A DNA stretch of 64,000 nucleotides from Bdellovibrionales bacterium (GTDB lineage Bacteria > Bdellovibrionota > Bdellovibrionia > Bdellovibrionales > UBA1609), in contig JAHDIR010000005.1 in the NCBI GenBank assembly GCA_020630675.1, positions 7,178 to 71,177 of the forward strand, written 5' to 3'. The notes under the pieces were generated by a model that was given only the letters and a program-made list of their open reading frames with translations, was not told the origin of the DNA and ran no database searches. Shown here one piece after another: positions 1 through 46,456 of the stretch. Positions within the stretch are counted from its first letter, which is position 1; every line of letters starts with the position of its first letter. Made by a program: the position numbers and the translations under genes.

Positions 1-1993
1 TTTCTTCTAAAAATATATTATTTCCAGATAAATCTTTAAAATCGGTCAGCAAACTATAGGTATCTCGTTGAATTTCATTGAAAGGCCAGTAGCCAATTAA
101 CTCATTATTTAGACCTTCCAACTGTTCAAAGTAGTCATCTGCTCTTTCACTGTCAGGGTTGCCATCGTTATCAAAATCACCAACTAATTCTTTACCAAAA
201 GGTAAGTTTGTCGACCAAGATAGGTCAGGCCAAGTGGAAGTTGTACGTCCTAAGTCGATCACTTCTGAGTCATAGTGCCCAGCATACTTTTGCTTCTGAC
301 GGTTATATATTGTTTTAATATTTTCTGTAGTTAATGATACATTCCAAAGCGCAAAGTCATCAAATTCGTGATTAATTGTATAGGCTGTATCACAACTTTG
401 ACCTATGCAGAGACTATCACTGTTTGTTGCGAGGTTTCCGGCTCCAGCTCTTGAGCCAATAGGGGCTCCATTTATAAATAATTGCCCACCCAAAAGGGTA
501 TCATAGACAAAGCCAATATGAATCCATTGATTTAAAGAGGCGAAGTGATGTTCAGACAAAGGCCCCCACCCTCCTCCACGGTTTCCAAAAAATTGAAGTC
601 GCCCTTCGTTTTCAGGATTACTTCCCAAATTATTTCCGAAAAAATATAAATTAAAATTACTATTTGATATATTTGCCTGCTTAATAAGTAAGTGAATCGC
701 ATATAAATTAGTGAATGATGTAAACTTCACCCAACCACTAAATGATAAGTTTGTACCTAAATCTAAACTAGGATCATCAATCACTTGCACATGATCAGTT
801 GAAGTAAATGATCCTGAACTTAATCCGATTTGATGATTTTCAGTTATAAAACTTGGCGAACCAGATGGTGTGCCATGGTTTCCATTTCCAGAGGAGTCTT
901 GCCAATTACCATCCATTTTCCAATAACCGACTATGTTGTCCCACATTGGGGTCCAGTTTGGGTTCAAGCTTGTATCTTGAGAAAAAATTTGAGATTGAGA
1001 TTTATAGATAGACTGAATACTATCAGCAGATAAGAACGTATTGTATATACCAACTTCATCAATGCTTCCCGTAAGTCTTCTGTTTGAGTGACCAAAAAGA
1101 AAAGGGTTCAAATTTAATGTCGTTCCTGTCAGATTCTCAGTTGAACTCCCCTCTAAAACCCCGTCTATATAAATTTCTGAAATACCGTTTTTTACTTGCC
1201 CGACAATATGGTGCCAACGATTATCATTGAGTACAGAAGAGCTAATCGCCGATTTTGCGCTTGTTCCATTGTATCTTGCAAATAGAATTGTACCAGGTGA
1301 TGAATGATTCGAGTTTCTGACTCTAAAAACAATAGAATATGGTGCACCTGTCCCCGCATTTTCAATAATTGGATTTTGAGTGGCTGCAAGGTCTAATTGT
1401 TGGTTCGGTAGTTTTACCCACAATGACACTGCATAATTATCATCAATATCAAAGCTATAATCACTACTGTATGGAGCTTGCGCACCAGTGTTAATACCAT
1501 CAAAGTAAATCGAGGAATCAATTCTTCCAGAAGTAAAAATTAAATTATCACTGTCTTCATTAGCATGGGCACCCCGGCCCGAAAAGTCTTCGTAGTCGGT
1601 ACCACCTGGAGCTATATTATTGGTTTTTTCATCAAATTTCCAATAAGCTACAAGATTAGAATTCATATTTGGTAATATATATTTTAAATCTGCTGTATCA
1701 ATATCACTTGTTAGTAATACCGAATTATGAAAATAGTGAGTACCAATATGATTTCCAGAGTTAAAGTCCTCACCTTCATGAGTTAAATCAAGAGGCTTAA
1801 GTTGAATTTGCCCACTTTTAATCTCAACAAAGTTCTCATCAAAACTAACTTCAGCTTTTTTTGAAAAATCCCATGTTGGCTCAAATAAAGAACCAAAATC
1901 AAAAGAGGTTTTTTCATAACTACATGATACTGTTAAGGCAAGCATAACAGAATAAGTGATTAAAATTTTAAAAGTTAAGACAATTACTTTCAT
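1..1993 (-). CDS. Multi-LamG-domain lipoprotein, paralog 1 (3' end runs off the window)
   Basis: Absent from the ORF track because it has no stop in the window. Hand translation from ATG 1993 gives MKVIVLTFKILITYSVMLALTVSCSYEKTSFDFGSLFEPTWDFSKK. The same frame gives WTPMWDNIVGYWKMDGNWQ (~955) and RQKQKYAGHYDSEVIDLGRTTSTWPDLSWSTNLPFGKELVGDFDNDG (~301), matching 9096..12380. Frame was checked at these three points only. Confidence 0.9.
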   Translation of the reverse strand, partial: MKVIVLTFKILITYSVMLALTVSCSYEKTSFDFGSLFEPTWDFSKKAEVSFDENFVEIKSGQIQLKPLDLTHEGEDFNSGNHIGTHYFHNSVLLTSDIDTADLKYILPNMNSNLVAYWKFDEKTNNIAPGGTDYEDFSGRGAHANEDSDNLIFTSGRIDSSIYFDGINTGAQAPYSSDYSFDIDDNYAVSLWVKLPNQQLDLAATQNPIIENAGTGAPYSIVFRVRNSNHSSPGTILFARYNGTSAKSAISSSVLNDNRWHHIVGQVKNGISEIYIDGVLEGSSTENLTGTTLNLNPFLFGHSNRRLTGSIDEVGIYNTFLSADSIQSIYKSQSQIFSQDTSLNPNWTPMWDNIVGYWKMDGNWQDSSGNGNHGTPSGSPSFITENHQIGLSSGSFTSTDHVQVIDDPSLDLGTNLSFSGWVKFTSFTNLYAIHLLIKQANISNSNFNLYFFGNNLGSNPENEGRLQFFGNRGGGWGPLSEHHFASLNQWIHIGFVYDTLLGGQLFINGAPIGSRAGAGNLATNSDSLCIGQSCDTAYTINHEFDDFALWNVSLTTENIKTIYNRQKQKYAGHYDSEVIDLGRTTSTWPDLSWSTNLPFGKELVGDFDNDGNPDSERADDYFEQLEGLNNELIGYWPFNEIQRDTYSLLTDFKDLSGNNIFLEE

Positions 1994-2002
1994 TGTAATT
2001 AT

Positions 2003-2030
2003 TTATCGTCATTTTAACTGCCAGCCTTTA
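2003..2030 (-). promoter_or_regulatory. sigma28/FliA-like promoter of LamG paralog 1
   Basis: Minus strand TAAAG-N15-GACGATAA versus the FliA consensus TAAA-N15-GCCGATAA; 9 nt from -10 box to ATG, no SD. Confidence 0.7.
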
Positions 2031-2256
2031 AGCTTATTCATAAGAAAAGTTAGGCATTTATAGCTACGTAAATGTAAAAATACCTTTCAATACCTAGGTA
2101 TGGGAATGGTGGTATCAGTTAACTTGGTTTCACACACATAGCGATATATTCTTGTAATTTCGACAATCAATAACTAGACCCTAGTCAGAGGGTAACTAAT
2201 GAATTAAGCATAAAAAGATCTAATTTCTATTTTTGATTTAAAAATTGGGAGCTTTC

Positions 2257-3183: not shown

Positions 3184-3237
3184 AAATACTTATCTTGATA
3201 ATTGAACCTGTACTTAAAAGCTCATTTAAAACCCTAC

Positions 3238-9095: not shown

Positions 9096-12000
9096 TTAGT
9101 TTGTTGATGAAACGTCTATATTTCGAAGACTACATTTTAATGTTTGATTCGCATTGGTTTGCAAAAAAGCTTTTATGTATAAAAGTCCCGGGCCGTGATC
9201 ATTTGAAAAGCTAATAATATGGTTTTCAAGATTTAGCTTTGTTGTCAGGTCACTGGCGGCAAGCACTGGAGACCAAGCCCCATTGTTAAAATAAAAATAA
9301 TTCGTTCCATCTGGGCTTAACTGATAAGTCACACAATCGTCTGCGTTTACTTTTATAGACTGAATACTTTTGTAGGCATAGGCTTTAAACGGAGTAACTT
9401 CTTGTAAACTTGAAGGGTATCTATCTTGACCACTTGTGTTTAAATTCACAGATGTGAGCTCGGGCAAGCAAGGGCTACCACTACAGGCATTGTTATCATC
9501 AGCTTCCATATAAACTCTATATCGAAAATAAGGATTAGCATTGAGCCTTGCTGCCAAAGGTAAACCATCAAAATTAATGACTGGGTTTGTTGGCCTAGGG
9601 CTAGCGGCTAATATAATTTCATCACCCACACAAATGTTACCATCACTGTCAGAAGTATTGTTTCCGCAATTAAAATTTAAGTCAGTGGTTTTACGATTAA
9701 AAAGTTCTGAGTAGTAGGTGGAATCATCACCACCAGGTCCTATAAATTTTGCTTTATGAGGGTCATCAAAATCCAAGGCATTTGCAATTGTATCACCATC
9801 GCAGTCATTGGCATTTCCTTCTGGAGATGTACTAAAAGTTTTACATTCACATGAAGAGTCTATACAGCTTTTCACTTGTATTTTAATACGATTTGCACCT
9901 CGGCGGTAAAGCTGCCTGATTTCTAAAGCTGAAAGAGCTCTTGACCAAATTGCATACTCGTCAATAGAACCAAGAAAACGTTGGGTACCTAATCCTGTTT
10001 GACCTATCACATGATTTAAACTTCCAATGATTGAATCATTGTTTACTAAGGCTTGAGATGCTTTTTCCTCACCATCAACATATATTTTAACACCTACATC
10101 ACGATCAAAAGTCCAACTAAGATGATGCCAGCTATTATCTCTATAGTCTTCGGCAACAGTGAGGCTGTTGACAATTTGACTAGATCCATCTGAAATCCAT
10201 AGCTGAATAAACCCACTTGCACCATTTATAGACAACCAGTGCCCTTCAGTTACAGATGTTGTTGAACCGCTAAGACTAATAATCCCCCATGAATTTTGGG
10301 GATCAAGGGCTTTAATCCATACAGACATTGTATAATCATCACTACCCATACTTAACGAAGGGTCTGTCCCTAAATCAATATAGCCAGTTGATAAATCAAA
10401 GGAGGCGCTTTTACTAAACAAAGGGGTTAAGTAAGAGGAATTAACGGTTCCAACGACAGTTCCTCCAAGACCAAGTGAAGAACTATCTTTGACTTCACCA
10501 GCTAGGCCACTCCAAGAATTTTCATTGAAATTAAAGTACCTTGCCAACTGTAAGTTTAAGTCACTCGTTATACCTGAGTATCCAATGTTATTTTCGTTAT
10601 CTAGGTTTCCATCTCTATCAAAATCACCAACTAACTCTTTACCAAAAGGTAAACTCGTTGACCAACTGAGATTGGGCCATTCAGAGGTTGTACTTCCTAA
10701 AAACATGACTTCGGAGTCATAATATCCAGCGTATTTTTGTTTTTGACGATTATATATTTTTAAAAAATCACCTGCCGTTAAATCAACATTCCATATAGCT
10801 AAATCATCTAATTCGCCATCAAAAGAATATGCAGAACTTGTTACGGCAGTGATCATTCCGATTCTACGTACACCACCAAATGTCGAAACAGTTGATACCA
10901 ACAATGAGTGACTGATATCCATCTCCCCATTGATAAATATTTTTAAAACTCCATCTTTAAAGGATATACTGACCATACTCCATACGTTCTCTTCTAATTT
11001 ATTATTAGAAAGGCTCCAAGACCCAACCGACTGAATAAAAACAGCAATTTTTCCAGATTGAGAGGGAACACCATTATCCCATAGTGATATCCCCATACCA
11101 GGAAAAGGAGAGGCGCCGTACCCACCCCATATAAATTCGGATGAGCCATCTGAATCATACGGACTTGGTTTTACCCAAAAATTAAAACTAAAATTCGAAC
11201 CAAAATCAAAATCTGCATGATAGGGAACTTCAGCCCAACTCAAGAGGTCATCAAATACCCCAGAACCAGAGCCAATTTTTCCATTTGTAGTGTGGCCTAC
11301 CGTTCCGTTGGCAACAGCATGGTGCCCTTTGCCAGAATAATCTTGCCAATTCCCATCCATTTTCCAATAACCAACAATATCGCTCCACCTTGGTGTCCAA
11401 TTTGGAGAAAGATTCGTTTGGTCTGAAAAAATTTGCTTTTGTACATTCCATAATTGAAAAACTTGTTCTTCAGTCACCGCTTCGGAAAAAAATGACACTT
11501 CATCAAGTTCTCCATGAAAGGACTGACCTCCTGAAACTTGATCTCTTGTAAAAGTTAAATCTGATGTGTAGTTGGGTATAAAAGCACTACTCTCAGACGC
11601 CATTGTATCTAAAGAACCATTTATATATATCTTTGCTCTTTGCGCGATCGGCAACGAGCCATCATAAACAACTGCTATATGGTTCCAAACTCCTGGCAAA
11701 ACTTCACCAACAGACTCAAAACGATCGTCCACACCGATGATATCGACACTAATTTTATTATTCAGATACCAAATGGTAAATGCTTGATTATCATTTGTGT
11801 TTACTCTTTTTGAAAGAATCGCATCATAGCCAGTAGAGCTTGATAAAGGCTTAACCCATGCCACTATAGACAATTGATCACGACCATCTATAATATCTGA
11901 ATCTGGAACAATAAATCGATCACCATCTCCATCAAAGTTGACGGCTTCACCTATTCTTCCAGGTACAAAATGATTGTCACCAGTAGGCGTTCCCACAAAA

Positions 12001-12380
12001 CCACTAGAAGATATATCGGAGTAGTCCCCATCTAAGCGCCAATAACCAATTAAACTTGTTGAAAGCTCAGGGCGTATGGCAGTCACACTTAAAGAGTTTG
12101 AGTTAGGTTCTGCTAAAAGTATTTTATTGTCTTTAAAGAAAGCTCCTACAAAATTACCTTCAATAAAATCTTCACCTTCTTGTTGTAAATCAAGAGGCTT
12201 TAATTGAACTCCCCCGTCTTTTACTTCAACATAATTTTCATCATAGTTAAGGTTGGTATCTTTAGAAAAATCCCATGTGGGATCTAGAAAAGAATCGAAA
12301 TCAAAAGTTGTCTTTTCATAGCTACATGATGTTGCCAAAAATATAATTACTAAATGTAACAACAAATATTTCATAATCAA
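9096..12380 (-). CDS. Multi-LamG-domain lipoprotein, paralog 2
   Basis: 1094 aa; lipobox ATSC; three LamG-like units (GYW..D, FDG, W.H/M...v....IY/FING, G.LDE...W); Cys-rich C-terminal scaffold. Confidence 0.9.
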   Translation of the reverse strand: MIMKYLLLHLVIIFLATSCSYEKTTFDFDSFLDPTWDFSKDTNLNYDENYVEVKDGGVQLKPLDLQQEGEDFIEGNFVGAFFKDNKILLAEPNSNSLSVTAIRPELSTSLIGYWRLDGDYSDISSSGFVGTPTGDNHFVPGRIGEAVNFDGDGDRFIVPDSDIIDGRDQLSIVAWVKPLSSSTGYDAILSKRVNTNDNQAFTIWYLNNKISVDIIGVDDRFESVGEVLPGVWNHIAVVYDGSLPIAQRAKIYINGSLDTMASESSAFIPNYTSDLTFTRDQVSGGQSFHGELDEVSFFSEAVTEEQVFQLWNVQKQIFSDQTNLSPNWTPRWSDIVGYWKMDGNWQDYSGKGHHAVANGTVGHTTNGKIGSGSGVFDDLLSWAEVPYHADFDFGSNFSFNFWVKPSPYDSDGSSEFIWGGYGASPFPGMGISLWDNGVPSQSGKIAVFIQSVGSWSLSNNKLEENVWSMVSISFKDGVLKIFINGEMDISHSLLVSTVSTFGGVRRIGMITAVTSSAYSFDGELDDLAIWNVDLTAGDFLKIYNRQKQKYAGYYDSEVMFLGSTTSEWPNLSWSTSLPFGKELVGDFDRDGNLDNENNIGYSGITSDLNLQLARYFNFNENSWSGLAGEVKDSSSLGLGGTVVGTVNSSYLTPLFSKSASFDLSTGYIDLGTDPSLSMGSDDYTMSVWIKALDPQNSWGIISLSGSTTSVTEGHWLSINGASGFIQLWISDGSSQIVNSLTVAEDYRDNSWHHLSWTFDRDVGVKIYVDGEEKASQALVNNDSIIGSLNHVIGQTGLGTQRFLGSIDEYAIWSRALSALEIRQLYRRGANRIKIQVKSCIDSSCECKTFSTSPEGNANDCDGDTIANALDFDDPHKAKFIGPGGDDSTYYSELFNRKTTDLNFNCGNNTSDSDGNICVGDEIILAASPRPTNPVINFDGLPLAARLNANPYFRYRVYMEADDNNACSGSPCLPELTSVNLNTSGQDRYPSSLQEVTPFKAYAYKSIQSIKVNADDCVTYQLSPDGTNYFYFNNGAWSPVLAASDLTTKLNLENHIISFSNDHGPGLLYIKAFLQTNANQTLKCSLRNIDVSSTN

Positions 12381-12403: not shown

Positions 12404-12431
12404 TTATCGACAAAAGGAGTTTGTAGCTTAA
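12404..12431 (-). promoter_or_regulatory. sigma28/FliA-like promoter of LamG paralog 2
   Basis: Minus strand TTAAG-N15-GTCGATAA, followed by AAGGAG SD at 12389-12394. Confidence 0.75.
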
Positions 12432-15250: not shown

Positions 15251-15311
15251 GGACACAGCTGAGGTGTGTCCGTACTTTTTCTTTTTAGGGTGGAAGTGTG
15301 TCCGTACCTTT
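15251..15311 (-). repeat. Dispersed repeat, two reverse copies plus hairpin between convergent genes
   Basis: GTGTGTCCGTAC at 15264-15275 and 15296-15307. GGACACA (15251-15257) pairs with TGTGTCC, flanked by A and T runs, so it could act as a bidirectional terminator. Confidence 0.9.
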
Positions 15312-16333
15312 TAGTTTATTTCGGCGGGTAAGAAAGATACTTTTAGTTCTGCGCCAGGCTCTTCCTTAAGTTCCAACTCTTTGGATAACTTAATTCCCAC
15401 TCTTCCTGGATCATAAGACCAACCCTTCTCTGCATCGGCAGGAACAACTTGAGATCCATAAGTAACCACAATAGTATTTAAAACCGGAAATTGTCCCAAA
15501 GGGATGAAATAACCAACCTTGTTGGTAAGGTCTTCACCAATAACCGCCAACTTTGGACCGTAATCAGCATCACACAAATTAAAAATATTATCCCCTTCTT
15601 TTTGCCCCTGTGCTTGAACTACTTTTTTCAAAAAAGCTTCTAGTCGGTAAGGCTCACCCTCTGAATCTCTTCGGCAAGTCGGGTCACTAATATTTGATGG
15701 AATTAAGGCTCCATAAGCTAAAACTTTTAATGGATCTCCTAATTTAATATCTACTAAGGCTTGATAAAACTCATCCGTGGTTTGTTGGCTTTCTTCATCT
15801 TCAGTATCTGTGATCATAATAATCGCCAGAAAAGCATCGTCTCTTATAAAATTACCATTAGGTCCATTAGGACCCATATTAGGAGGGGTAATCGTCGAAA
15901 TAATATTATCAAAAAACATTTCATCTCCGGAACCACTCGTTCCAGCAACAACTCGTCTAGAAATCTCTTGTAAACCACCAGGAGTAGATTTAGTGATAAA
16001 CGAAGGGCTGCCTGTAAGGAAACCACCTCTTCTGCGACGTGGATTCCAGTCAGTTGTTGTTACACCTATTTGATAATCTATTAATTTGTTTCGGCTAATT
16101 TCGTTAACAAAAGCCATCATGTTTCTTGAAAGGTTATTTTGATAGGACATCATACTACCCGAATCATCAACCACTAATAAAATATCTACTTTTGGATTAA
16201 ACCTTACATTTAAATTAAAACCTTCTGTTTTTCTTAACCCCTCAATTTTGGGGTCTCTTGAAGGATGAGAGGGCGAACAACTTAAGCCAAGATAACTTAG
16301 CAACACTAAAATTAAAGAGATATTTTTTGACAT
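15311..16333 (-). CDS. vWA-domain lipoprotein (CglB-like adhesin candidate)
   Basis: Lipobox GLSC; VDILLVVDDSGSM MIDAS motif; IIMITDTEDE; last gene of the Agl/Glt-like operon. Confidence 0.8.
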   Translation of the reverse strand: MSKNISLILVLLSYLGLSCSPSHPSRDPKIEGLRKTEGFNLNVRFNPKVDILLVVDDSGSMMSYQNNLSRNMMAFVNEISRNKLIDYQIGVTTTDWNPRRRRGGFLTGSPSFITKSTPGGLQEISRRVVAGTSGSGDEMFFDNIISTITPPNMGPNGPNGNFIRDDAFLAIIMITDTEDEESQQTTDEFYQALVDIKLGDPLKVLAYGALIPSNISDPTCRRDSEGEPYRLEAFLKKVVQAQGQKEGDNIFNLCDADYGPKLAVIGEDLTNKVGYFIPLGQFPVLNTIVVTYGSQVVPADAEKGWSYDPGRVGIKLSKELELKEEPGAELKVSFLPAEIN

Positions 16334-17944: not shown

Positions 17945-18624
17945 AGCAAATACCCCAATGAAAGGCTGGCTGTTGTTAAATCAATGTTTTGTGTTCCTGT
18001 ATACCATTTGGCTTCATAGGCTTGATAACGAAACTCGGCTCTGGCTGTAATATGTTGTGATATCCACATGCCCATTCCGAAACCTCCAGTATATGTCGGT
18101 GAGCTTCCATTTCTTAAGCTAACTTGTCCGGCACCAAGAATGAGGTAACCATCAAAGTGAACAATTCCTTTATCAAAGAAATTAAATTTTCCGTAAATAG
18201 GGTACCAGTTGATTTGTGCTACATATGACTGCTTTAACCAGTCAAGCTCGGGAACTTCTGCTTGCCGCTCCCCTCTTTCTCTTAGTAATTCTTTACCTTC
18301 ATCAGTGAGTTCATTAAAAAAGTAACTATACTTTAAGCCCACTGACCACTTGGGATTAATATGAAATTGGTAATTCAAACCAGCAAATTGAGTGTCTAAA
18401 TAAGCATCTCCGCCAAAAACTGTTCCATACTCTGGGTAAAATTCACTTTTATAATTTCGATCTACAATTCTTTTTTGAACAATTTTAATTTTGAGTTCTG
18501 GATTCACAGAGGCAGCTTTTTCCAAAAGTGCATCATTGCCTCCCAAAGAATCAAAACCGTCCATAATATCGGCCTGAGCCTGGTTCATAAAAAGTAATAA
18601 AGTTATAAGTGTTATATATTTCAT
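17941..18624 (-). CDS. Outer-membrane beta-barrel (GltA/B/H-like)
   Basis: IVQKR, WYPIYGKF, HFD motifs; C-terminal SLSLGYLL. Confidence 0.8.
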   Translation of the reverse strand: MKYITLITLLLFMNQAQADIMDGFDSLGGNDALLEKAASVNPELKIKIVQKRIVDRNYKSEFYPEYGTVFGGDAYLDTQFAGLNYQFHINPKWSVGLKYSYFFNELTDEGKELLRERGERQAEVPELDWLKQSYVAQINWYPIYGKFNFFDKGIVHFDGYLILGAGQVSLRNGSSPTYTGGFGMGMWISQHITARAEFRYQAYEAKWYTGTQNIDLTTASLSLGYLL

Positions 18625-18657
18625 TTTTTACCTTTTTGTTGATTTAGATATTTAATT

Positions 18658-19989
<1,332 letters not shown>

Positions 19990-20003
19990 TTTTTACTCTC
20001 CTT

Positions 20004-24415: not shown

Positions 24416-24434
24416 TCTCCCTTCCGGTGGGATA

Positions 24435-24932: not shown

Positions 24933-24941
24933 AAAGCTCCT

Positions 24942-25397: not shown

Positions 25398-25405
25398 TTC
25401 AACCT

Positions 25406-33867: not shown

Positions 33868-36800
33868 TTACCTATCTGAAGAATTAACATCAATGGAGTG
33901 AATAGAGCAATTGGAGCTCTGATCAGAATTTGTCGTTAAAAATGCTTTGACGTACAATAGCCCTGGGCCATGTTCATTGGAAAAACTGACAATATTATTT
34001 TCAAGATCATTTTTCGTAGAGCTGTGACTGACTGTTGTCACAGGCACCCAAGATTCACCACTTAAATAAAAGTAATTCGTTCCGTCAGGACTGAGTTGGT
34101 ATGTGGCACAGTCATCAGCTTTGATTTCAATAGACTCAATGGCTTTATAAGCAAAAGGTTTTGTCGGCATGACTTCTTGAACAAGTCCAAAGTATTTAGC
34201 TTCATTGGCTGAGCTGAAGTTCACAGATGATAACTCTGGCAAACAAGGGCTACCACTACAGGCTGTATTTTCATCGGCCTCAAAATATGTGCGATACTGA
34301 AAATAACGATTAGCTTGTGGCCTTGCAGCTAAAGGGAAGTTACTAAAATCAAGCACTGGATTGGTAGGTCTTGGCCCTGCTTCAAATGTTATTTCATCAT
34401 CCACACAAATATTACCGTCACTATCTGAAGTGTTATTAGAACAATTGAAAAGTGTGTCCGTACCTTTTCGGTTAAATATTTCTGAGTAGTAGGTGGTGCC
34501 GTCACCACCGGGGCCTATGAACTTAGCCTTATGAGGGTCATCAAAGTCTAATGCATTTACAATAGTGTCACCATCACAATCGGTGGCACTGCCTTGAGGG
34601 GATGTGCTAAAGCTTTTACAAGCACATGTTGAGTCTATACAGCTTTTCACTTGAAACTTAACTCGGTTAGCTCCCCTGCGGTAAAGTTGTAAAACCTCAT
34701 CATCAGTTAATGGCCTTGTCCAAAAAGCAACTTCATCTAACTTTCCTTTAAACTCTTCATACCAAGCCGTCCCTGGTTGTCGGTCACCAAAAATTAAATC
34801 GTTGCTTGTTCCAAAAGACCAAGGGCCTACAGAAGTAATATCATTTCTAACACCATTTAAATAAATTCTCTGGTTAGTTCCAGACAATTTATTATAAATC
34901 ACAGTAATATGATTCCATTGATTGGGAATAATGTAGTTGGCTGACCTAAATTGCACTTCATTACACGGAGACCCACAAACGGGATCATTCCCCTGCACTT
35001 GAACCTGCCCTTCTACAAGAGTTATAATAAAACCAGGGTGAGCATTTACGTCAGCAATCGTAATTAGAGAAGCTGCTCCTTGAGTGGTTGGACCAAAAGA
35101 GCCACCTTCAATTCCCCAGTCTAGGCCGGTGTAAACCCATAAACTAAATGAACCCTCATCTGACTCAAAATCACTATGATGAGCAACTGTGACAAACTCC
35201 CCATCTCCTCCTGAGAAAGAAATAGAATGACCCAACACACCCGATTGAGATAAATTTATTGGGCCAGATAAAGTTCCGTGACGGCCAAGCCCTGATAAAT
35301 CTTTAATGTCACTTATGCCAGGAGCTGAGCCCAAAGTTTTTTCATTAAAATTCCAATATCCTGCTAATCCATTTTGTAGCTGACCACTCATTGCCGAGTA
35401 ATTACGAGAGCTTTCTGCATCAGCCACACCATCATTGTCATAGTCTCCCACTAGCTCTTTACCAAAAGGCAAGCTGGTTGACCAGGACAAGTCTGGCCAA
35501 CTGGTGATAGCAGCGCCAAAGTCTATCACTTGGGAATCAAAGTGAGCGGAGTATTTTTGTTTTTGGCGATTGAAAATAGAATGAATATCTTCATGAGATA
35601 AACTTGTATTGAAAATAGCCACTTCATCTATTTGCCCAGTAAACTCTTGGTTTCCACCCCCCGAAACCCCGGCACCAATTGTAAAACCAGATGTAGAGTT
35701 CGGTACTGCATTGCTTGGCCCCGAGGCTAAATGCTGGCCATTTACATATAAATCTGTGGATAAATCTGGGTTTCTAACAGCCGCTATATGACTCCATACA
35801 CCTGATAGGATGGGCTGTGTTGAAGTGTACAAGGCCTGTAAGGCTCCAGCACCTGAGTCATAAGACTGAAAAGATAATTCGCCATTAGAGATGTACATTC
35901 CATATTCCATATCGCTATATTGTCCTTGCCGAGTAATCAACTGAAACCCTGTTACGAGACTTGGTTTAACCCAAGCCATTTGAGTGACGGCGCCAGTTGT
36001 CTTTAATAAAGCCGAACTACCCATATCAATATAATCATCGTCTCCATCAAAAACCGCACTTTGACTTCCCACTTGATTGTCAGTGTCATAAGCAACATCA
36101 CCAACAATGCCCCCTTGATGTCCGTTGTTTGATGAATCTTGCAAGTGACCATCCATAGTCCAATAGCCAACGAGATGATCCCACTTTGGTGTCCACGTCG
36201 GTGCTAAATTATTTTCTGAAGAAAATAATTTAGACTGCCTTTCATAAATAGATTTAACCTCACTTGAGGTAAGAGTTGTTTCCCAAATAATGAGCTCATC
36301 AACAAACCCATTCATAGGCTCTAAGCCTGAGTTACCCACTTCAAAACTACTGCCTGGTGTCGACAAAACCCCGCCAGGCTCTTGTTCAAATATCAAGTCA
36401 CCATTAAAGTAAAGTTTTTGAGAGCTGCCATCCCAGGTTGCAACTATGTGCTGCCATTCGTTTAAAGACAGGACATCATCAACTTGTATATGCTTAAGGG
36501 TTCCGTCTGTTTTAATAAAAAAATGAATTCGTCCTAAGTTGACATTACTCACACTTCTTAACACAAACAATTCTGGCTTAAGACTAAAAAATCTTTGAAC
36601 GCCTCCATTAAATTCGTTTAATTTAATCCACAAAGATACAGACACAGAGGTTGTGACTCCTAAAGCTGAATTTCTTAAAATAGCGGCACCAGTATCACCA
36701 TCGAAATATACCCCTTGTTTCCACTTAGAATTCACCCGATAAGTAGAGTTTGTTAAGTTCGAAGAAGTCATGTCACCACCAATTTCTGAAGGTATGATGG

Positions 36801-37179
36801 AGTTATTAGCAAGCTCACCAATGTTTCCATTGAAGGGTTGGTAGTGAATAATACTTGAATATTGTGGAGCCCAAGAACTGTCAACAGCAGCGTGGTCAGA
36901 TGTTCTTACCGACAAAATATTCTCATCTAAATAGGTCGAAAAAAAATTTCCAGAATTAAACTCTATGGCTGATTGATTTAAGTCGAGTGCCTTTAACTGC
37001 ACTTTGCCATCTTTAACTTCAACAAAGTTTTCATCAAAACTTAGGTTTTCATTTTTAGAAAAATCCCAAGTGGGCTGAAACAATGAGCTGGTCGTGATAA
37101 TGGTCTGACTGGAGTGACAAGATATTAAAGATACCAAAAAGAAATAAAAATAGATTAACTGGTGCAGAACTTTCATCAC
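33868..37179 (-). CDS. Multi-LamG-domain lipoprotein, paralog 3
   Basis: 1103 aa; lipobox LISC; same scaffold blocks as paralog 2; start GTG 37179 or ATG 37176. Confidence 0.9.
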   Translation of the reverse strand: MMKVLHQLIYFYFFLVSLISCHSSQTIITTSSLFQPTWDFSKNENLSFDENFVEVKDGKVQLKALDLNQSAIEFNSGNFFSTYLDENILSVRTSDHAAVDSSWAPQYSSIIHYQPFNGNIGELANNSIIPSEIGGDMTSSNLTNSTYRVNSKWKQGVYFDGDTGAAILRNSALGVTTSVSVSLWIKLNEFNGGVQRFFSLKPELFVLRSVSNVNLGRIHFFIKTDGTLKHIQVDDVLSLNEWQHIVATWDGSSQKLYFNGDLIFEQEPGGVLSTPGSSFEVGNSGLEPMNGFVDELIIWETTLTSSEVKSIYERQSKLFSSENNLAPTWTPKWDHLVGYWTMDGHLQDSSNNGHQGGIVGDVAYDTDNQVGSQSAVFDGDDDYIDMGSSALLKTTGAVTQMAWVKPSLVTGFQLITRQGQYSDMEYGMYISNGELSFQSYDSGAGALQALYTSTQPILSGVWSHIAAVRNPDLSTDLYVNGQHLASGPSNAVPNSTSGFTIGAGVSGGGNQEFTGQIDEVAIFNTSLSHEDIHSIFNRQKQKYSAHFDSQVIDFGAAITSWPDLSWSTSLPFGKELVGDYDNDGVADAESSRNYSAMSGQLQNGLAGYWNFNEKTLGSAPGISDIKDLSGLGRHGTLSGPINLSQSGVLGHSISFSGGDGEFVTVAHHSDFESDEGSFSLWVYTGLDWGIEGGSFGPTTQGAASLITIADVNAHPGFIITLVEGQVQVQGNDPVCGSPCNEVQFRSANYIIPNQWNHITVIYNKLSGTNQRIYLNGVRNDITSVGPWSFGTSNDLIFGDRQPGTAWYEEFKGKLDEVAFWTRPLTDDEVLQLYRRGANRVKFQVKSCIDSTCACKSFSTSPQGSATDCDGDTIVNALDFDDPHKAKFIGPGGDGTTYYSEIFNRKGTDTLFNCSNNTSDSDGNICVDDEITFEAGPRPTNPVLDFSNFPLAARPQANRYFQYRTYFEADENTACSGSPCLPELSSVNFSSANEAKYFGLVQEVMPTKPFAYKAIESIEIKADDCATYQLSPDGTNYFYLSGESWVPVTTVSHSSTKNDLENNIVSFSNEHGPGLLYVKAFLTTNSDQSSNCSIHSIDVNSSDR
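34448..34468 (-). repeat. Dispersed repeat embedded in-frame in LamG paralog 3
   Basis: AAAAGGTACGGACACACTTTT on the coding strand, encoding (R)KGTDTL(F). Confidence 0.9.
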
Positions 37180-37185: not shown

Positions 37186-37214
37186 TTATCGGAAATATAT
37201 ATGTAAAAGCTGAA
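37186..37214 (-). promoter_or_regulatory. sigma28/FliA-like promoter of LamG paralog 3
   Basis: TCCGATAA -10 box 9 nt before ATG 37176; weak -35 (TTCAG at N16). Confidence 0.55.
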
Positions 37215-37396: not shown

Positions 37397-39664
37397 CTAT
37401 TGAATTAAGGTTTCTTTTAACTTTTGCCCTGGCAGACATTGGTTATTAACAATTTTGTATAAATTATCTCTGTCTTTCCACATATATTCGTCTTCTGGCT
37501 CTAAAACTTTTAAAAACTCTATGAGGCTTTGGATATCGTTATCATCTAAATTTTTCCAAGACTCAAAGTAATGGCCTCTGTTGTTGTTGCCATAACCAGT
37601 GATATAGTCTTTTCTAGGCAGTTGACCTTTACCATTTTCATATTTTTCATATAATTTGTAAAAAGTTTCAGCATAGATACTATCCTCTGCATTAAAACAG
37701 TGAATAGGTGTTTTGTTACAGTATGCTTGTATCTCTTTTGAACTTGGCTGCTTTAGCCCTAAGGTTTGCGTATCAAACTCTAAATGATTAATTTTAAAAT
37801 CCTTGTACCTTCGGTGTGGTGGTGTCATCAGTTGCTTTATACTCGCCACAGAGCCGTTATGTAAAAACGGAGCTGTTGCCCATATTCCAGCCAAGTGCCT
37901 GGCCACATAACCATATCCTTTGCTGTTACCCTTGGCATCTGTGGGTAATGTCATATAATCATTTTTAAGTTCACCAACATTTCCTAAGTAGGTGTCACGA
38001 AACTCATCGGGGCCTCGCAAAGCTAAATCTTTAGCCCGTTCTTTTAATACCCCATAAGAGTTCACCTGGTCTGGGTGATCTTTTTTGTAAAGCTCTAATG
38101 TGTCTTGCACCAACTTCATGAGTGTTTCTTTTAAATACTTTCCTTGATAAGGTGTTGATTGCAGAACAGCATAGTTAGGGTCTGTTTTTAGCCCCGGCTC
38201 GTTAATTTTAAAAACTTTGTATTGCAAAAGCTTTTTTTGAGGGCCAACTTTTTCACTGGCGGTGTGGCAATCCATACATTGCTTCACATAAGTGTTACAA
38301 CCAGCAATAATTTTATTTTTGTCTAACGAATTTTCACCAATAATTTTTGTCCACTGAGGTACTTCAATTTTATGCATGATGTTTTCTAGATCTATTAAAT
38401 TTTCAATATTTGCCGATGACCTTAATGTTCCCTCTTCTTTTATAACAGCACCTAAGCCATAGGATTGACCGATATCTCTTAATAAAAGTGAATTCATATT
38501 GCCATTATAGTGAAACGCAGCTTTATATTCAGTGGCCCAAACAAATGGGTGAGAGACTGGAGCGTAATAGTCTAAAGGGTCTTTATCTCTTAAAATAGAA
38601 TTGGCAATTCGTCCGAAGGCATCATTCCGGCCAATTCCAGAACCGCCTTTTTGCACCTCAGCTTTGGGGTAAGAAGAAATTAATTTACCCACTCGGTCCA
38701 TAGCCATTTTTTGTTCATAACTTAAAGTGTAGTTTGTTCCTTTGTAAACAGTCATTCTAAGCAGTTCTTCTAAATACTTATTTAAAACACTTCTATTTTT
38801 TTCACGCATTTTCCCAATAGTATCAACAGTTAAGTACTGAGAAACCATAGATTCAAACGAATTGAGTTTGTCAAATGTTGGAGGGTTAGTTAAAACTATA
38901 CTATTAATACATTCGTCTTTTGTAGGCCTTGGGTTAACAAATGGTATTCTTTTCATCTCAATTTCATCAGTGAAATTTAACATAAAATCACAGGCCAAGC
39001 CTTTAACTTCACTGTCTTTGTAACCAAATGTTAATAAAAATTTAGCTAATTCATCAGCTTTAAACATAAGTGCTGCTACCGAACCGGCCATATCTTGAAA
39101 AAAACCAAAAACATTGAACAAGCCTGGAGCACCATCAATGATAAATTTTTCATCTCCTACTTTTAATTGCCCAGTATGGCATAAAGCACAGTTGGTTTCT
39201 AACATAGCCACTTGTGGATTTCCGAAATTATCTAGTTTAAAATTTTTAGCCTCTTCTTTTTCTGCTTTTAAAATATCACTACTTCTATCGTTTTCATTGG
39301 TCCATGTTGCAGATAACCCAACCCAATCTAATAGGTAAGGAGATTTTTCATCTTTAATTAAATTATTTTTTTCATCTAATTTTTCTAACAAAGGGCTATA
39401 AGACCCATCTTTATTGGGAGTTTTAAGATTTAGCATTCTAACAGCCCAAGGGTAAGGTATTAACGGGCTCCCCTGACTTTTATGCCAATATTTTTGCTGA
39501 TAATCAGCTCCTAGAGTATAATATTGGTTTGCTACGCTTGTTGTTTGTCGATTCACTTTTTTGTTGGCAGCAGTTTTATGTTTTGAGAACTGGCAAGCAC
39601 TCATAACAAAGACAGATGTTAAAAAAATACAAACAGATTTAATTATAACTTTATAAGATTCCAT
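37397..39664 (-). CDS. Di-heme cytochrome c lipoprotein (RoxA/peroxidase-like)
   Basis: Two CxxCH (CALCH, CMDCH), GRNDAFG, LAGIWATAPFLHNGSV, GNNNRGH; lipobox MSAC. Confidence 0.8.
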   Translation of the reverse strand: MESYKVIIKSVCIFLTSVFVMSACQFSKHKTAANKKVNRQTTSVANQYYTLGADYQQKYWHKSQGSPLIPYPWAVRMLNLKTPNKDGSYSPLLEKLDEKNNLIKDEKSPYLLDWVGLSATWTNENDRSSDILKAEKEEAKNFKLDNFGNPQVAMLETNCALCHTGQLKVGDEKFIIDGAPGLFNVFGFFQDMAGSVAALMFKADELAKFLLTFGYKDSEVKGLACDFMLNFTDEIEMKRIPFVNPRPTKDECINSIVLTNPPTFDKLNSFESMVSQYLTVDTIGKMREKNRSVLNKYLEELLRMTVYKGTNYTLSYEQKMAMDRVGKLISSYPKAEVQKGGSGIGRNDAFGRIANSILRDKDPLDYYAPVSHPFVWATEYKAAFHYNGNMNSLLLRDIGQSYGLGAVIKEEGTLRSSANIENLIDLENIMHKIEVPQWTKIIGENSLDKNKIIAGCNTYVKQCMDCHTASEKVGPQKKLLQYKVFKINEPGLKTDPNYAVLQSTPYQGKYLKETLMKLVQDTLELYKKDHPDQVNSYGVLKERAKDLALRGPDEFRDTYLGNVGELKNDYMTLPTDAKGNSKGYGYVARHLAGIWATAPFLHNGSVASIKQLMTPPHRRYKDFKINHLEFDTQTLGLKQPSSKEIQAYCNKTPIHCFNAEDSIYAETFYKLYEKYENGKGQLPRKDYITGYGNNNRGHYFESWKNLDDNDIQSLIEFLKVLEPEDEYMWKDRDNLYKIVNNQCLPGQKLKETLIQ

Positions 39665-43168: not shown

Positions 43169-46100
43169 TTATTTTTTGACATAATTCACATCAATATTAC
43201 GAATGCTACAGTTGGAAGTTTGCTGAGAATTGGTTTTTAAAAAAGATTTAATATGTAAGGCTCCAGGAGCAAATTGTTCTGAATACTTCAATATATTATT
43301 TTCTAAATCCCCTTTGGTTGAACGATGTTCAGGCTGAGTTGCCGGCACCCAGGCACCTTCACTGTAGTAGAAATAATTACTTCCATCTGGGCTTAGCTGA
43401 AAACTCACGCAGTCGTCAGCTGCGGCAGCAATAGAAATTAGGCGAGAATAGTTGATCACTTCAGTCGGTTTAACCTCCTGTATGCCTCCAAAATATTTTT
43501 CTTGTTCACTGGTATTTAAGTTTACAGATGTGAGCTCAGGAAAGCATGGGCTACCACTACAAGCTAAATTTTCATCGGCTTCTAAATAAACACGGTACTT
43601 GAAAAAAGGGTTGGCATTAGGCCTTGCACTCAACGGTAAATTGTCAAAATTAATCACAGGTACAGTTGGTTTTGGTCCTGCGCTTAAAGTAATTTCATCA
43701 TTTACGCATATATTTCCATTGCTGTCAGAAGTATTGTTTCCACAATTAAAAAGTGTGTCCGTACCTTTTCGGTGAAAAGCTTCTGAGTAGTAGGTGGTGC
43801 CATCACCTCCAGGACCAATAAATATTGCCTTATGAGAGTCCTCAAAATCTACAGCGTTTACAATTGTGTCGCCATCACAGTCATTGGCATTTCCTTCAGG
43901 AGAGGAACTATAGCTTTTACATTGGCAATTAGAGTCAATGCAGCTTTTCACTTGCAGCTTAACTCTGTTAGCCCCACGACGATAAAGCTGTTGAACTTCG
44001 TTCACTGATAAAGCTCTTGACCAAAAACTAAACTCATCGATTTTACCCGGAAAAAAGTTATCTGAGCCACCAACCCATAAATTATTTTGGCTGACTGGAG
44101 TAAAGGAGCTACACGAAGATGACGAAGCCACCTCAACACCATCTATATATATTTTGAATAAGGTTCCATCAAAGGAAGTCACTATATAGGTCCAGCGTCC
44201 TGAACTTATTGCGTTTGTTTTTACAACCCCACATTGGCCTGTACCATGACCAAAGTAAGCTGAAATGGTGTTTTCATTGTTTATGTAAATGGTTGGCGGA
44301 CGCTGGCTTATACCATCAAGATTATAACCCAAGATTGAGTGGTAGTTGATATCATTGACTTCAGAAAACACCCACAAGGCCTGCGTAAACTGCCCCGAGC
44401 CACTAATATCTAAAGCAGAGTCATTAAAAGCTATATGTGATGAAATACCATCAAAACGGGCTGAATTTAAAAAGTGTCCATCCTGTCCAAAAACAACCGA
44501 GCCAACAGGCGTACCATGCGCATTATTTCCTGATGTATCAATGACAGAGCTTGCCCCCGTTGTTCCAATATTTTCATTGAGCGACCAATAGCCGATTAAA
44601 CCTGCGGCCAAGCTTTCGTTAATATTTGAATAATCCAAAGAACTTTCACTGTCTGCAATCCCATCAGTATCAAAATCACCCACTAAACCTTTACCAAAAG
44701 GTAAAGTCGTAGACCAACTTAAATCTGGCCATTGAGAGCTGGTACTTCCTAAAGAAATGACTTCTGAGTCTATATGGCTGACATACTTTTGCTTTTGACG
44801 ATGAAAAATTAAACTGACTTCAGAAGGGCTTAGAGCTTCTTCCCATATAACAAAATCATCTAACTCTCCCTCAAAGCTAGCAATGGCACCACTGGTAAAA
44901 TTAAGAGCTGTGACCCCTCCAGGAATGGATGATACATCTGTTCCTGTCCCCGTTAGTTTTCCATCTATGTACATAAAAAGTTGGCCTGACTTGGCCACAG
45001 CAACTATGTGATGAAAGCTTCCGTCGTTAATGGGCGTAGTCCCAACTACAGAGGCGCTTGTAGTTCCGTTATATCTTGCAAACCAAAGCGTTCCTGGGCT
45101 TGCCGCTGTTTGATTAAAATAAAAAAATCGAGCAAGATAAGCTGGGCTAGCTGCAGTCACAGTACCAAGAATGTTATGGTCAAGGCCTATTTCACTTTGA
45201 ATGAGTGCCGGCTTTAGCCATAAAGAAACTGTCATATCAGAATTTAAATCTAATGCACTTAAACTTCCAGAAATAGAGGTATCTAAAACAGTATCTCCAA
45301 TACCATCAAAAGTTCCTGATAGCCCCCCTACTTTTGCTTCGTTTACAAATGTTGAATCTCCAGAAATTGTAAGGTGATTTTCATTTCCAGATGAGTCATG
45401 CCAATGCCCATCCATCGTCCAGTGGCCGACGATGCTGTTGTATCTGGGCGACCATTCAGGCCTATGATCATTCATTTTTAATGATTGTTGATTATACAAA
45501 AGCTTTACTTCTTGGGCTGTAAGAGGAACATCAAAAATGGCTAACTCATCAATAAAGCCATTAAAAGAAAAAACTCCATTGGCTCCGACTGCACCAATGA
45601 CAAAAGGTGCCGTCGTAATTGCCGGCAGTTCTGTATAAGAATCTTGCGCAACTAATGTGCCGTTAATATAAAGTTTAAGTTCATTATCGCTATCGATTAC
45701 ACAAGCTAAATGATACCAAACATCGTTTTGTAGAGAAAGTTTAGTAACCGTTAACTCCCCCGGAACACTTGGCTGTGCCATACTACAACGAACTCCTGCA
45801 GGCTCACCATTTTCAACTCTAATGTAAATTGAGTCATTGTTATAACTAAAGCCTTTTCGTGTGATATAGCCATAAGTTCCAGAACTATCCCCCATTTTTT
45901 TAACCCAAGCACTGATTGTCTTAACTTTATCAGATGCTAAATCACTAACTGAGGTGGTACTAATATTATCTAACGTTCCATCGAGAGCTAAAGAGTGACT
46001 GCCTAGGTGACTAACTAACGAGTTTGCTGCATCTGCAAATGTATCCATTGGACGACTTAAATTTTGACTATCTATAACACCACTATCAAAACGCCAATAA

Positions 46101-46456
46101 GCTAATAGTTGGCCAGCCTGTTGAGGTAAAATTTGTCTGACATCATGTTCTGACGAATTTTTATCATATTGAATTGAAACAAAATTTTGATTTAAACTCA
46201 TTCCAGGTTGAGAAAGACTATTTAATTCAGACGAATCAAAGTTTAAATCTATAGGCTTTAGTTGGGCTTGACCATTTTTTATTTCCACATAATTTTCATT
46301 AAAAGTTAGTTTTGATGAGCTTGAATAGTCCCAGGTTGGATTAAATAAAGAACTTTCTTCAATAACTGTATGTTCGTAACTACAGGAGCTCATCAAAGAT
46401 AAAATGAACAGTTTGAAAATTATAATTGGAGCGTAAAAGTAAAAACCTTTATTCAT
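43169..46456 (-). CDS. Multi-LamG-domain lipoprotein, paralog 4
   Basis: 1095 aa; lipobox MSSC; same scaffold blocks. Confidence 0.9.
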   Translation of the reverse strand: MNKGFYFYAPIIIFKLFILSLMSSCSYEHTVIEESSLFNPTWDYSSSSKLTFNENYVEIKNGQAQLKPIDLNFDSSELNSLSQPGMSLNQNFVSIQYDKNSSEHDVRQILPQQAGQLLAYWRFDSGVIDSQNLSRPMDTFADAANSLVSHLGSHSLALDGTLDNISTTSVSDLASDKVKTISAWVKKMGDSSGTYGYITRKGFSYNNDSIYIRVENGEPAGVRCSMAQPSVPGELTVTKLSLQNDVWYHLACVIDSDNELKLYINGTLVAQDSYTELPAITTAPFVIGAVGANGVFSFNGFIDELAIFDVPLTAQEVKLLYNQQSLKMNDHRPEWSPRYNSIVGHWTMDGHWHDSSGNENHLTISGDSTFVNEAKVGGLSGTFDGIGDTVLDTSISGSLSALDLNSDMTVSLWLKPALIQSEIGLDHNILGTVTAASPAYLARFFYFNQTAASPGTLWFARYNGTTSASVVGTTPINDGSFHHIVAVAKSGQLFMYIDGKLTGTGTDVSSIPGGVTALNFTSGAIASFEGELDDFVIWEEALSPSEVSLIFHRQKQKYVSHIDSEVISLGSTSSQWPDLSWSTTLPFGKGLVGDFDTDGIADSESSLDYSNINESLAAGLIGYWSLNENIGTTGASSVIDTSGNNAHGTPVGSVVFGQDGHFLNSARFDGISSHIAFNDSALDISGSGQFTQALWVFSEVNDINYHSILGYNLDGISQRPPTIYINNENTISAYFGHGTGQCGVVKTNAISSGRWTYIVTSFDGTLFKIYIDGVEVASSSSCSSFTPVSQNNLWVGGSDNFFPGKIDEFSFWSRALSVNEVQQLYRRGANRVKLQVKSCIDSNCQCKSYSSSPEGNANDCDGDTIVNAVDFEDSHKAIFIGPGGDGTTYYSEAFHRKGTDTLFNCGNNTSDSNGNICVNDEITLSAGPKPTVPVINFDNLPLSARPNANPFFKYRVYLEADENLACSGSPCFPELTSVNLNTSEQEKYFGGIQEVKPTEVINYSRLISIAAAADDCVSFQLSPDGSNYFYYSEGAWVPATQPEHRSTKGDLENNILKYSEQFAPGALHIKSFLKTNSQQTSNCSIRNIDVNYVKK
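43749..43769 (-). repeat. Dispersed repeat embedded in-frame in LamG paralog 4
   Basis: Same 21-mer at the homologous position as in paralog 3. Confidence 0.9.

Follow-up and report, generated by a model that had tools for sequence, protein, structure and literature searches.

A 64,000-nucleotide (nt) stretch of DNA from an uncultured Bdellovibrionales bacterium (contig JAHDIR010000005.1 of assembly GCA_020630675.1, positions 7,178 to 71,177; hereafter, the window), located on contig C73 of a 3.1 Mb genome in 110 contigs, carries four members of a large gene family whose products set three divergent LamG domains between conserved blocks. Copies of the family have mosaic histories along their length, and most of them have a FliA (σ28)-type promoter motif of their own close to the start codon. 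We consider it somewhat probable that these genes, which belong to a genus-specific family of about 30 putative lipoproteins, form an attack-phase surface-recognition repertoire.

The four window genes had been singled out in a first-pass annotation as minus-strand paralogs with shared blocks and a Cys-rich end, and this description was borne out. Their open reading frames (ORFs) are listed at positions 2-1993 (open at the window edge), 9096-12380, 33868-37179 and 43169-46456 of the minus strand. The proteins can be aligned over their whole length, with 36-41% identity to the first one, and all the motifs quoted in the annotation are present (PTWD[FY]S, [DN]EN[FY]VE.K.G..QLK..DL, W[TS]P....VG.W.MDG, RQKQKY...DS.V, WP.LSWST.LPFGK.LVGD.D.DG and QLYRRGANR, the last of which starts the Cys-rich C-terminal region of ca. 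270 amino acids (aa)). The Pfam family Laminin_G_3 (PF13385) matches three stretches of each complete window copy (E 1e-58 to 4e-64) and two stretches of the copy cut by the window edge; with scores of 129-216 bits against a gathering score of 27.6 bits, these stretches belong to PF13385, and at E<=0.01 only weaker, overlapping LamG-type families were found besides it in the four proteins. A lipobox-like pattern, a hydrophobic leader ending in [SGA]-C, was recognized by eye and by regular expression (that is, at the pattern level) in all 31 listed copies with an intact N-terminus, and Cys20 is invariant across an alignment of 32 sequences. Judged by this leader, the family products are putative lipoproteins.

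Two other profiles gave partial matches. The NCBIfam profile of the TafC fimbrial protein (NF052521) scored 72-80 bits against a cut-off of 410, and only over its LamG-like part (ca. 191-364), so the proteins do not belong to that family. The receptor-binding N-domain of clostridial neurotoxins (PF07953) scored weakly (23-38.5 bits) on the LamG stretches, and no other neurotoxin domain was found; membership was rejected, and structural matches to the botulinum and tetanus neurotoxin receptor-binding domains (BoNT/TeNT Hc) reflect a likeness of the LamG fold only.

The annotation treated the four genes as a set; they are real, but they are only a sample of the family. A hidden Markov model (HMM) built from the four proteins matched 38 stop-to-stop ORF pieces genome-wide, 30 of which contain the N block and 26 the C-terminal end, while 19 are complete in one ORF. 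Contig ends are touched by 15 of the 19 incomplete pieces, often near the border between LamG3 and the C-terminus, and the assembly therefore appears to break within the conserved part. Since one of the N-block pieces is a 104-aa internal fragment, the genome has at least 29 family genes, which account for ca. 3% of its DNA. Seven copies are located on contig C73, including three in tandem. A short form with two LamG domains, in which exactly the LamG1 slot is absent, occurs once in this genome and also in two relatives. Within a set of 40 relatives, the full architecture recurs in the three other species of the genus (16, 5 and 2 matches), with a single further case in a different family of the order, and the remaining matches are at the LamG level only; the expansion of the family is confined to one genus. 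Comparison of 140 ORFs flanking family copies revealed only 3 similar pairs and no conserved partner gene or operon. Flanking genes are unrelated between copies, and the family genes can therefore be regarded as stand-alone units.

Several irregular copies were observed. The 104-aa internal ORF (contig C89:14092-14404) is a stand-alone 5′ fragment that contains the N block only (model positions 9-78) and has no CGATA element. On contig C66 (locus L017), an orphan 198-aa ORF contains the C-terminal domain only (model positions 908-1105); it lies ca. 220 nt downstream of a complete family gene (L017:329-3553) and resembles debris of unequal recombination. The copy at C64:23837-27093 consists of two overlapping frames, with the break near model position 905, at the LamG3/C-terminus border, and is either a frameshifted pseudogene or an assembly error. 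Contig C27 (locus L015) carries a tandem array of at least three copies, the third of which begins at the contig end; the C-terminus and 120 nt of 3′ flank are nearly identical after two of the copies. In Logan contigs from three DNA runs of one sample, the summed depth was 35-90 at window positions 34386-34516 and 36351-36612 vs. ca. 5 elsewhere; these peaks within a family gene are probably due to k-mers common to paralogs in the conserved blocks.

Conservation along the gene was determined as the mean pairwise identity per 20 aa in 27 full-length copies, 16 from this genome and 11 from a second species. The identity is about 0.5 in the N block, about 0.54 in the junction, 0.58-0.73 in the central block and 0.36-0.75 in the C-terminal region, while in the LamG interiors it is 0.10-0.34. 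The LamG interiors are thus as divergent, relative to the blocks between which they lie, as had been claimed from the four window genes. LamG strands (identity of 0.25-0.28) are no better kept than loops (0.22-0.28), which means that whole domains differ rather than a few hypervariable loops. Synonymous sites are saturated at the distances that separate family copies.

Different parts of the gene also have different relatives. The best match of a segment was located in the same genome for the C-terminus in 26 of 27 cases and for the N block in 25 of 27, but for LamG1, LamG2 and LamG3 in only 12, 17 and 18 of 27 cases, respectively. The identity of the C-terminus is 0.58 and 0.69 within the two genomes vs. 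0.47 between them, while that of the LamG domains is 0.20-0.24 everywhere. In segment trees, the C-terminus splits by genome with one exception, whereas the LamG1 and LamG3 trees contain strongly supported cross-species pairs (support of 100 for the LamG1 pair). By the approximately unbiased (AU) test, the C-terminus data reject both the LamG1-joined pair (p 8.6e-65) and the LamG3-joined pair (p 9.6e-5). The other LamG slots do not reject the LamG1 and LamG3 pairs (p 0.39-0.72), and no LamG slot rejects the C-terminus pair (p 0.18-0.67); since the LamG trees are star-like, AU tests on LamG data have no power. Exchange between LamG slots therefore rests on contrasts of identity rather than on resolved trees.

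Such contrasts are evident in individual pairs. The copy at 9096-12374 and a copy from the second species are 59% identical in LamG1 and 65% in the junction; the values for LamG2, LamG3, the C-terminus and the N block are 20, 25, 46 and 38%, respectively, and the similarity falls off sharply at ca. aa 350-365, right behind the junction. A second pair exceeds the background in LamG3 alone (40%). Conversely, two tandem copies on another contig are 99.65% identical over 867 nt that cover exactly the C-terminus, with 120 nt of identical 3′ flank; their central blocks are 100% identical and their junctions and N blocks 77-90%, while their LamG domains are 22, 22 and 17% identical. The best match of a LamG domain in another protein occupies the same slot in 71 of 81 cases. 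We conclude that the scaffold is homogenized by gene conversion and that whole LamG cassettes appear to have been exchanged or independently retained, with borders at the conserved blocks. The annotation had proposed exchangeable heads with the conserved blocks as possible crossover points, and had suggested separate trees for each slot and block as a check. Different stretches of the gene do have different histories, the breakpoints being at the conserved blocks, and C-terminus data do reject the LamG1 and LamG3 pairs; formal incongruence among the LamG slots themselves was not obtained, as AU tests on LamG2 and LamG3 lack the power to resolve it (p 0.18-0.72).

A full-length model of the 1102-aa protein was obtained with AlphaFold2 (predicted local distance difference test (pLDDT) score of 75.1, predicted TM-score of 0.64). 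It contains three jelly-rolls, each closed by a helix (residues 304-320, 528-539 and 825-836), and a C-terminal sandwich (958-1100). Foldseek matched the modeled LamG domains to laminin LG and neurexin LNS domains at E values of 3e-17 to 1e-14, the best matches being 5xau_A (E 3.1e-17) and 3qcw_A (4.4e-17); a single LamG-type domain, 5hon_A, was matched with a target-normalised TM-score of 0.75 and a root-mean-square deviation (rmsd) of 3.0. The predicted fold is therefore that of a LamG/LNS jelly-roll. All LamG slots are opened by the motif [YF][WF]-x-[FLM]-[DN]...SG, including the one that starts in the junction, where the model has a strand at 335-340. It follows that the junction is a linker plus the first strand of LamG2, and its earlier interpretation as a block of the scaffold is not supported.

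The packing of the remaining blocks was predicted as a complex of three chains, namely residues 822-1102 (C-terminus), 21-98 (N block) and 536-606 (central block, the scored partner), with the junction left out. The interface score ipSAE was 0.80, 0.80 and 0.77 vs. 0.00 in three controls, with a partner pLDDT of 52-53 and an agreement of contacts between runs of at least 75%; the mark used for ipSAE, which is reached by 116 of 157 solved complexes and by 2 of 215 mismatched pairs, is only a rough guide for a prediction with its own alignment and three chains. Predicted contacts connect residues 539-569 of the central block with 839-851, 939-998 and 1084-1087 of the C-terminus and with 64-92 of the N block, and a strand at 545-554 is predicted to pair with 957-965. 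Since no similar solved structure exists (best E value of 0.25 among Protein Data Bank (PDB) sequences, no Foldseek match at E<=0.001), this result is unlikely to come from the memory of the predictor. Independently, segment HMMs applied to nine other proteins with the C-terminal domain, among them giants with two to four modules and the homologue from B. bacteriovorus (both discussed below), found the central block and the C-subdomain in a 1:1 ratio in 9 of 9 proteins (17 modules), always as the central block followed by one to three LamG domains and then by the C-subdomain. The models and the module counts support a discontinuous core inside which LamG3 is nested and which the chain would exit twice. 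The discontinuous scaffold proposed in the annotation is supported for the N block, the central block and the C-terminus, but not for the junction.

Outside the LamG domains, no Pfam family was found even at E<=10 in the N block (aa 1-100), the central block (aa 530-620) or the C-terminal 281 aa. A separate model of the latter had a pLDDT of 82.7; it retrieved no Foldseek match at E<=0.001 (best value of 0.12) and no usable match in the ESM Atlas, and the C-terminal profile retrieved a single chain from PDB sequences, at E 0.25. With VIA-align, the highest Z among 48,161 chains was 5.5 (9h4p_BD, rmsd 3.0, 91 aligned residues), which is below the level the tool calls meaningful, and the matches covered only model residues 136/172-281 and were generic sandwiches (GOLD domains, carbohydrate-binding modules, C-domains of proteases); the C-terminal fold is therefore not shown to be new. 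Thus, the C-terminal domain has no counterpart in Pfam, NCBIfam or the PDB, and together with the central block and the nested LamG it is an undescribed conserved module. In GTDB representative genomes, the 56 loci of the C-terminal domain belong almost only to Bdellovibrionota (Bdellovibrionales, Bacteriovoracaceae, Halobacteriovorax, Bdellovibrio and Oligoflexia). The domain occurs in 43 of 301 genomes sampled from the phylum, usually with 1-8 matches, while the genome studied here yielded 44 first-look candidates. Among 1.84 billion sequences, the profile matched 1301 cluster representatives at E<=0.001 (745 at 1e-10); the 150 matches that were listed are mostly 800-1150 aa long, and Laminin_G_3 was present in 15 of 15 scanned proteins carrying the domain.

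In B. bacteriovorus, a FliA-type element consisting of a -35 TTAAG, a 16-nt spacer and a -10 CCGATA marks 92 of 140 mapped attack-phase promoters (PMC3627812). Twenty-five copies of the LamG family have enough upstream sequence for a search within 140 nt of the lipobox codon. The upstream regions are otherwise unrelated, yet nearly all of them contain (N)CGATAA 6-30 nt before the start codon and TTAAG or TAAAG 16 nt further up. The -10 core CGATA was found in 21 of 25 copies, whereas 0.08 are expected per searched region (the genome total is 3633 sites); T[TA]AA[GA]-N16-NCGATA was found in 14 of 25 copies, with 82 sites in the genome, and the exact TTAAG-N16-CCGATA in 4 of 25, with 8 sites in the genome. 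A stricter pattern ([GC]CGATA[AT] with a spacer of 11-16 nt) matched 5 of 23 copies. In the second species, CGATA[AT] precedes 8 of 11 three-LamG copies and one-base variants precede the other three, while two two-LamG copies are without it. For three window copies out of four, the distance from the -10 element to the start codon is 7-9 nt, which suggests that their mRNAs may be leaderless or near-leaderless.

The genome has a FliA (σ28) gene (TIGR02479, 266.7 bits vs. a cut-off of 189.6) and four genes with flagellin domains. By eye, two of the four flagellin upstream regions (C92:1099 and C101:54462) have TTAAG/CTAAAG-N15-(C/T)CGA(A/T)A ca. 100 nt upstream, and these elements would fit a FliA regulon that also covers the LamG family. 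Since most copies have a FliA-type promoter of their own, their production in the attack phase is probable. Nothing in the upstream regions that were inspected points to one expression site supplied by silent cassettes, to invertible promoters or to homopolymer switches. Antigenic variation through one expression site was considered and rejected, given an own -10 element in 21 of 25 copies, 19 complete ORFs and only three internal orphan pieces.

Taken together, these observations suggest the following picture. Each protein would be an outer-membrane-type lipoprotein anchored by an N-terminal lipid-modified cysteine, with a Cys-rich composite core to which three distant parts of the chain contribute (the C-terminal ca. 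270 aa, the central block and the N block). On its first excursion from the core the chain would form LamG1 and LamG2, and on the second LamG3, so that one core would present three lectin-like jelly-rolls. The core would be kept alike within a genome by gene conversion, while the LamG domains would be old, divergent cassettes that are occasionally swapped at conserved borders and retain their slot. Made probably in the motile, prey-seeking attack phase, from FliA-type promoters at the start codons of most copies, the proteins may serve as a repertoire of receptors or adhesins that recognize many prey envelopes or other surfaces.

Several points weigh against this picture. Among the 25 copies, 11 have a degenerate -35 half, and the promoters are predicted from sequence. 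No RNA run is found among the public sequencing runs that contain the stretch. The complex prediction, with its own alignments and three chains, lies outside the calibration of its score. AU tests on LamG1, LamG2 and LamG3 do not reject a common ancestry of the test pairs (p 0.18-0.72), and the comparison of strands and loops gave no sign of focused hypervariable binding loops in the LamG domains. A sequence does not tell whether a lipoprotein is exposed on the cell surface. Metagenome bins are the only source for this lineage, for which a predatory life is an assumption based on its phylum; the only public runs with the stretch are labelled as algae metagenome (one study) and, at a 0.05 share, as aquatic viral metagenome, and algal or polysaccharide ligands are therefore possible.

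The last point leads to the idea that the proteins capture, or attach the cell to, environmental or algal polysaccharides for nutrition or life on algae, with the LamG heads acting like carbohydrate-binding modules. Laminin_G_3 is a common accessory module of glycoside hydrolases, domain 4 of AbnA is matched with a target-normalised TM-score of 0.75 (rmsd 3.0), a PL14-type polysaccharide lyase is encoded in the window at 59345-60745, and the main DNA runs containing the stretch are labelled as algae metagenome, all of which would be in line with this idea. We nevertheless find it unlikely: no copy is fused to a catalytic domain or has one next to it, the flanks are unrelated (3 similar pairs among 140 ORFs), the FliA-type promoter indicates the motile phase, and a habitat label from a single study is weak. 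The same paralogs, with a constant anchor, variable exposed parts and conserved parts homogenized by gene conversion, could instead make up a variable coat whose diversity serves to evade phages, grazers or the receptors of competitors rather than to recognize targets, as other variable lipoprotein families behave as evasion coats. This is quite improbable, since 21 of 25 copies have their own promoter element, the inspected upstream regions bear none of the three switching signs named above (single expression site, invertible promoter, homopolymer switch), and LamG folds are typically ligand-binding. A role inside the envelope is the most improbable of the explanations we considered: periplasm-facing outer-membrane lipoproteins with a structural function, their number due to neutral duplication, would agree with the fact that sequence cannot show surface exposure and with the Ser at +2 after the Cys, which by the E. 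coli rule argues only for outer-membrane sorting. One would then have to account for ca. 3% of a 3.1 Mb genome being kept as intact ORFs (19 complete), for the strong conservation of a Cys-rich scaffold and for a promoter motif kept in two species.

A further alternative concerns not the function but the history of the heads. The LamG domains may have diverged by point mutation alone, under weak constraint or diversifying selection, so that only the scaffold was converted and no cassette was exchanged. The absence of rejection when LamG1- or LamG3-defined pairs are tested on the remaining LamG slots (p 0.39-0.72), slot fidelity in 71 of 81 cases and a LamG identity that is equal within and between genomes (0.20-0.24), as at saturation, are what one would expect in this case. 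We hold such a history to be decidedly unlikely, because the cross-species pair has 59% identity in LamG1 while LamG2 and LamG3 are at the family background of 20-25%, because in the other pair LamG3 alone stands out (40%), because no slot is consistently slow, and because the similarity drops abruptly at ca. aa 350-365, just after the junction. At the opposite end, one can imagine a combinatorial prey-receptor system in which the conserved blocks are kept partly as recombination sites and LamG heads are continually re-assorted among ca. 30 attack-phase loci. This extension of the surface-recognition reading is tentative, and we rather doubt it. If it were true, a predator population would possess an evolving library of three-headed receptors that tracks the diversity of prey surfaces; the system would parallel, among lipoproteins, the mosaicism of phage tail fibres and would stand next to the mosaic adhesive trimer (MAT) fibres as a second, independent solution, with the nested "LamG inside a split sandwich" module as its structural basis across Bdellovibrionota.

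The positions of the window genes, of their parts and of the promoter elements are collected in Table 1.

Table 1. Family genes, their parts and promoter elements in the window
Feature	Position	Strand	Comment
Family gene, 5′ two thirds, cut by window edge	1..1993	-	full length of 1118 aa in the contig (locus L011:315-3671)
N block	1694-1882	-	1-1993 copy
LamG1	977-1681	-	1-1993 copy
Junction	857-976	-	1-1993 copy
LamG2	305-856	-	1-1993 copy
Central block	101-304	-	1-1993 copy
TAAAG-N16-ACGATAA, FliA-type bipartite promoter	2003..2030	-	-10 ends 9 nt upstream of ATG at 1993
Family gene, complete, 1092 aa	9096..12374	-	
N block	12093-12284	-	9096-12374 copy
LamG1	11421-12080	-	9096-12374 copy
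Junction	11301-11420	-	9096-12374 copy
LamG2	10752-11300	-	9096-12374 copy
Central block	10548-10751	-	9096-12374 copy
LamG3	9894-10547	-	9096-12374 copy
C-terminal region	9099-9893	-	9096-12374 copy
TTAAG-N16-TCGATAA, FliA-type bipartite promoter	12404..12431	-	29 nt upstream of ATG of 9096-12374 copy; followed by AAGGAG ribosome-binding site
Family gene, complete, 1102 aa from ATG	33868..37176	-	GTG one codon upstream is an alternative start
Signal and lipobox	37117-37176	-	33868-37176 copy
N block	36892-37077	-	33868-37176 copy
LamG1	36217-36879	-	33868-37176 copy
Junction/first strand of LamG2	36097-36216	-	33868-37176 copy
Rest of LamG2	35572-36096	-	33868-37176 copy
Central block	35368-35571	-	33868-37176 copy
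LamG3	34669-35367	-	33868-37176 copy
Cys-rich C-terminal region	33871-34668	-	33868-37176 copy
CCGATAA, σ28 -10-like	37186..37192	-	9 nt upstream of ATG of 33868-37176 copy; -35 degenerate (TCAGC)
Family gene, complete, 1095 aa	43169..46456	-	
N block	46148-46342	-	43169-46456 copy
LamG1	45476-46135	-	43169-46456 copy
Junction	45356-45475	-	43169-46456 copy
LamG2	44804-45355	-	43169-46456 copy
Central block	44600-44803	-	43169-46456 copy
LamG3	43970-44599	-	43169-46456 copy
C-terminal region	43172-43969	-	43169-46456 copy
TCGATAA, -10-like	46464..46470	-	7 nt upstream of ATG of 43169-46456 copy

Between two of the family copies, at 21437-26119 of the minus strand, genes for ExbB (25406-26119), two ExbD proteins (24942-25397 and 24435-24932) and a 992-aa tetratricopeptide repeat (TPR) protein (21437-24415) run in one direction and make up a TonB/Tol-like energising cluster. 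A run of five ORFs on the same strand (340, 536, 227, 443 and 383 aa; 15311-21155) has no Pfam family, apart from matches to the low-complexity acidic tail of one of them. A 755-aa protein with a RoxA-like cytochrome c motif (37397-39664, minus strand) is encoded directly upstream of the 33868-37176 copy and a trypsin-family protease (46641-47567, minus strand) directly upstream of the 43169-46456 copy. Genes for a HYDIN/ASH Ig-like repeat protein (52651-54588, minus strand) and a DUF4423 protein (54800-55642, plus strand) are also present in the window; the PL14-type lyase gene, which bears on the polysaccharide-binding alternative, is on the minus strand.

The LamG family is a mosaic gene family of putative surface-recognition type that has an undescribed nested module and an attack-phase-type promoter. 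We found no paper linking LamG proteins to Bdellovibrio-like organisms (Bdellovibrio, Bdellovibrionota, Halobacteriovorax, Bacteriovorax), and the main text of PMC11656739, on comparative genomics and lineage-specific families, does not mention LamG, laminin, concanavalin, lectin, lipoprotein or paralog.

Bdellovibrio species have a single distant relative, the "LamG-like jellyroll fold domain-containing protein" of B. bacteriovorus and B. reynosensis (WP_088564126.1 and WP_243535436.1), on which no paper was found. It shares the module at residues 698-1398, in the order LamG, central block, LamG, Cys/Ca start and C-subdomain, but it is 1405-1425 aa long, gives one match per genome in 6 of 18 Bdellovibrio genomes searched, is matched in the C-subdomain only (E ca. 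1e-25) and has an Invasin_D3/FN3 stalk in place of the N block and LamG1. In giant proteins of the phylum (P0114, 6034 aa; P0139, 4272 aa; P0141, 4068 aa; P0172, 2993 aa; and a 6036-aa frame in G237:C11), the unit consisting of LamG, central block, one to three LamG domains and the C-subdomain is repeated two to four times, and it can therefore be regarded as an evolutionary module; the giants differ in having FN3/Big stalks and are not dispersed single-module lipoproteins. LG/LNS tandems of laminin alpha chains and neurexins use the same repeated jelly-roll for ligand recognition, but they are eukaryotic, share only 8-13% identity and are arranged as beads on a string with EGF spacers, with neither a split core nor a lipid anchor. 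Lipid-anchored paralogs with conserved ends, variable middles and gene conversion are known in Borrelia (Vsp/Vlp/VlsE) and Mycoplasma (Vlp/Vsa), where either one expression site with silent cassettes or phase-variable promoters are used. In contrast, 21 of 25 copies of the LamG family have a promoter element of their own, and their variable units are whole folded domains.

The nearest functional parallel is provided by the MAT fibres of B. bacteriovorus, a 21-member mosaic prey-recognition family with glycan binding shown for one member (PMC10769870). Both families are multi-copy in a Bdellovibrionota genome (21 there, ca. 30 here), combine a conserved presenting part with a diversified one, have ends exchanged between paralogs and are proposed to recognize glycans of prey surfaces. 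MAT proteins are trimeric β-helix/β-prism fibres that have a single variable tip and, in some cases, an S74 chaperone-protease, whereas the LamG proteins, known here from sequence and models, would be lipoproteins with three LamG jelly-rolls nested in a compact core. Membership of the MAT superfamily was rejected, since Pfam finds only LamG-type families and the model consists of jelly-rolls and a compact core. MAT fibres (2024), described only in B. bacteriovorus, were the first candidate repertoire by which predatory bacteria may recognize a wide range of prey. In a sister lineage, the LamG family would add a second repertoire of unrelated structure, in which one conserved core, three exchangeable lectin-like heads and a promoter of attack-phase type are combined. 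Provided that their binding specificities can be established, the heads could be used as modular recognition domains to target engineered predators or proteins to chosen bacteria.

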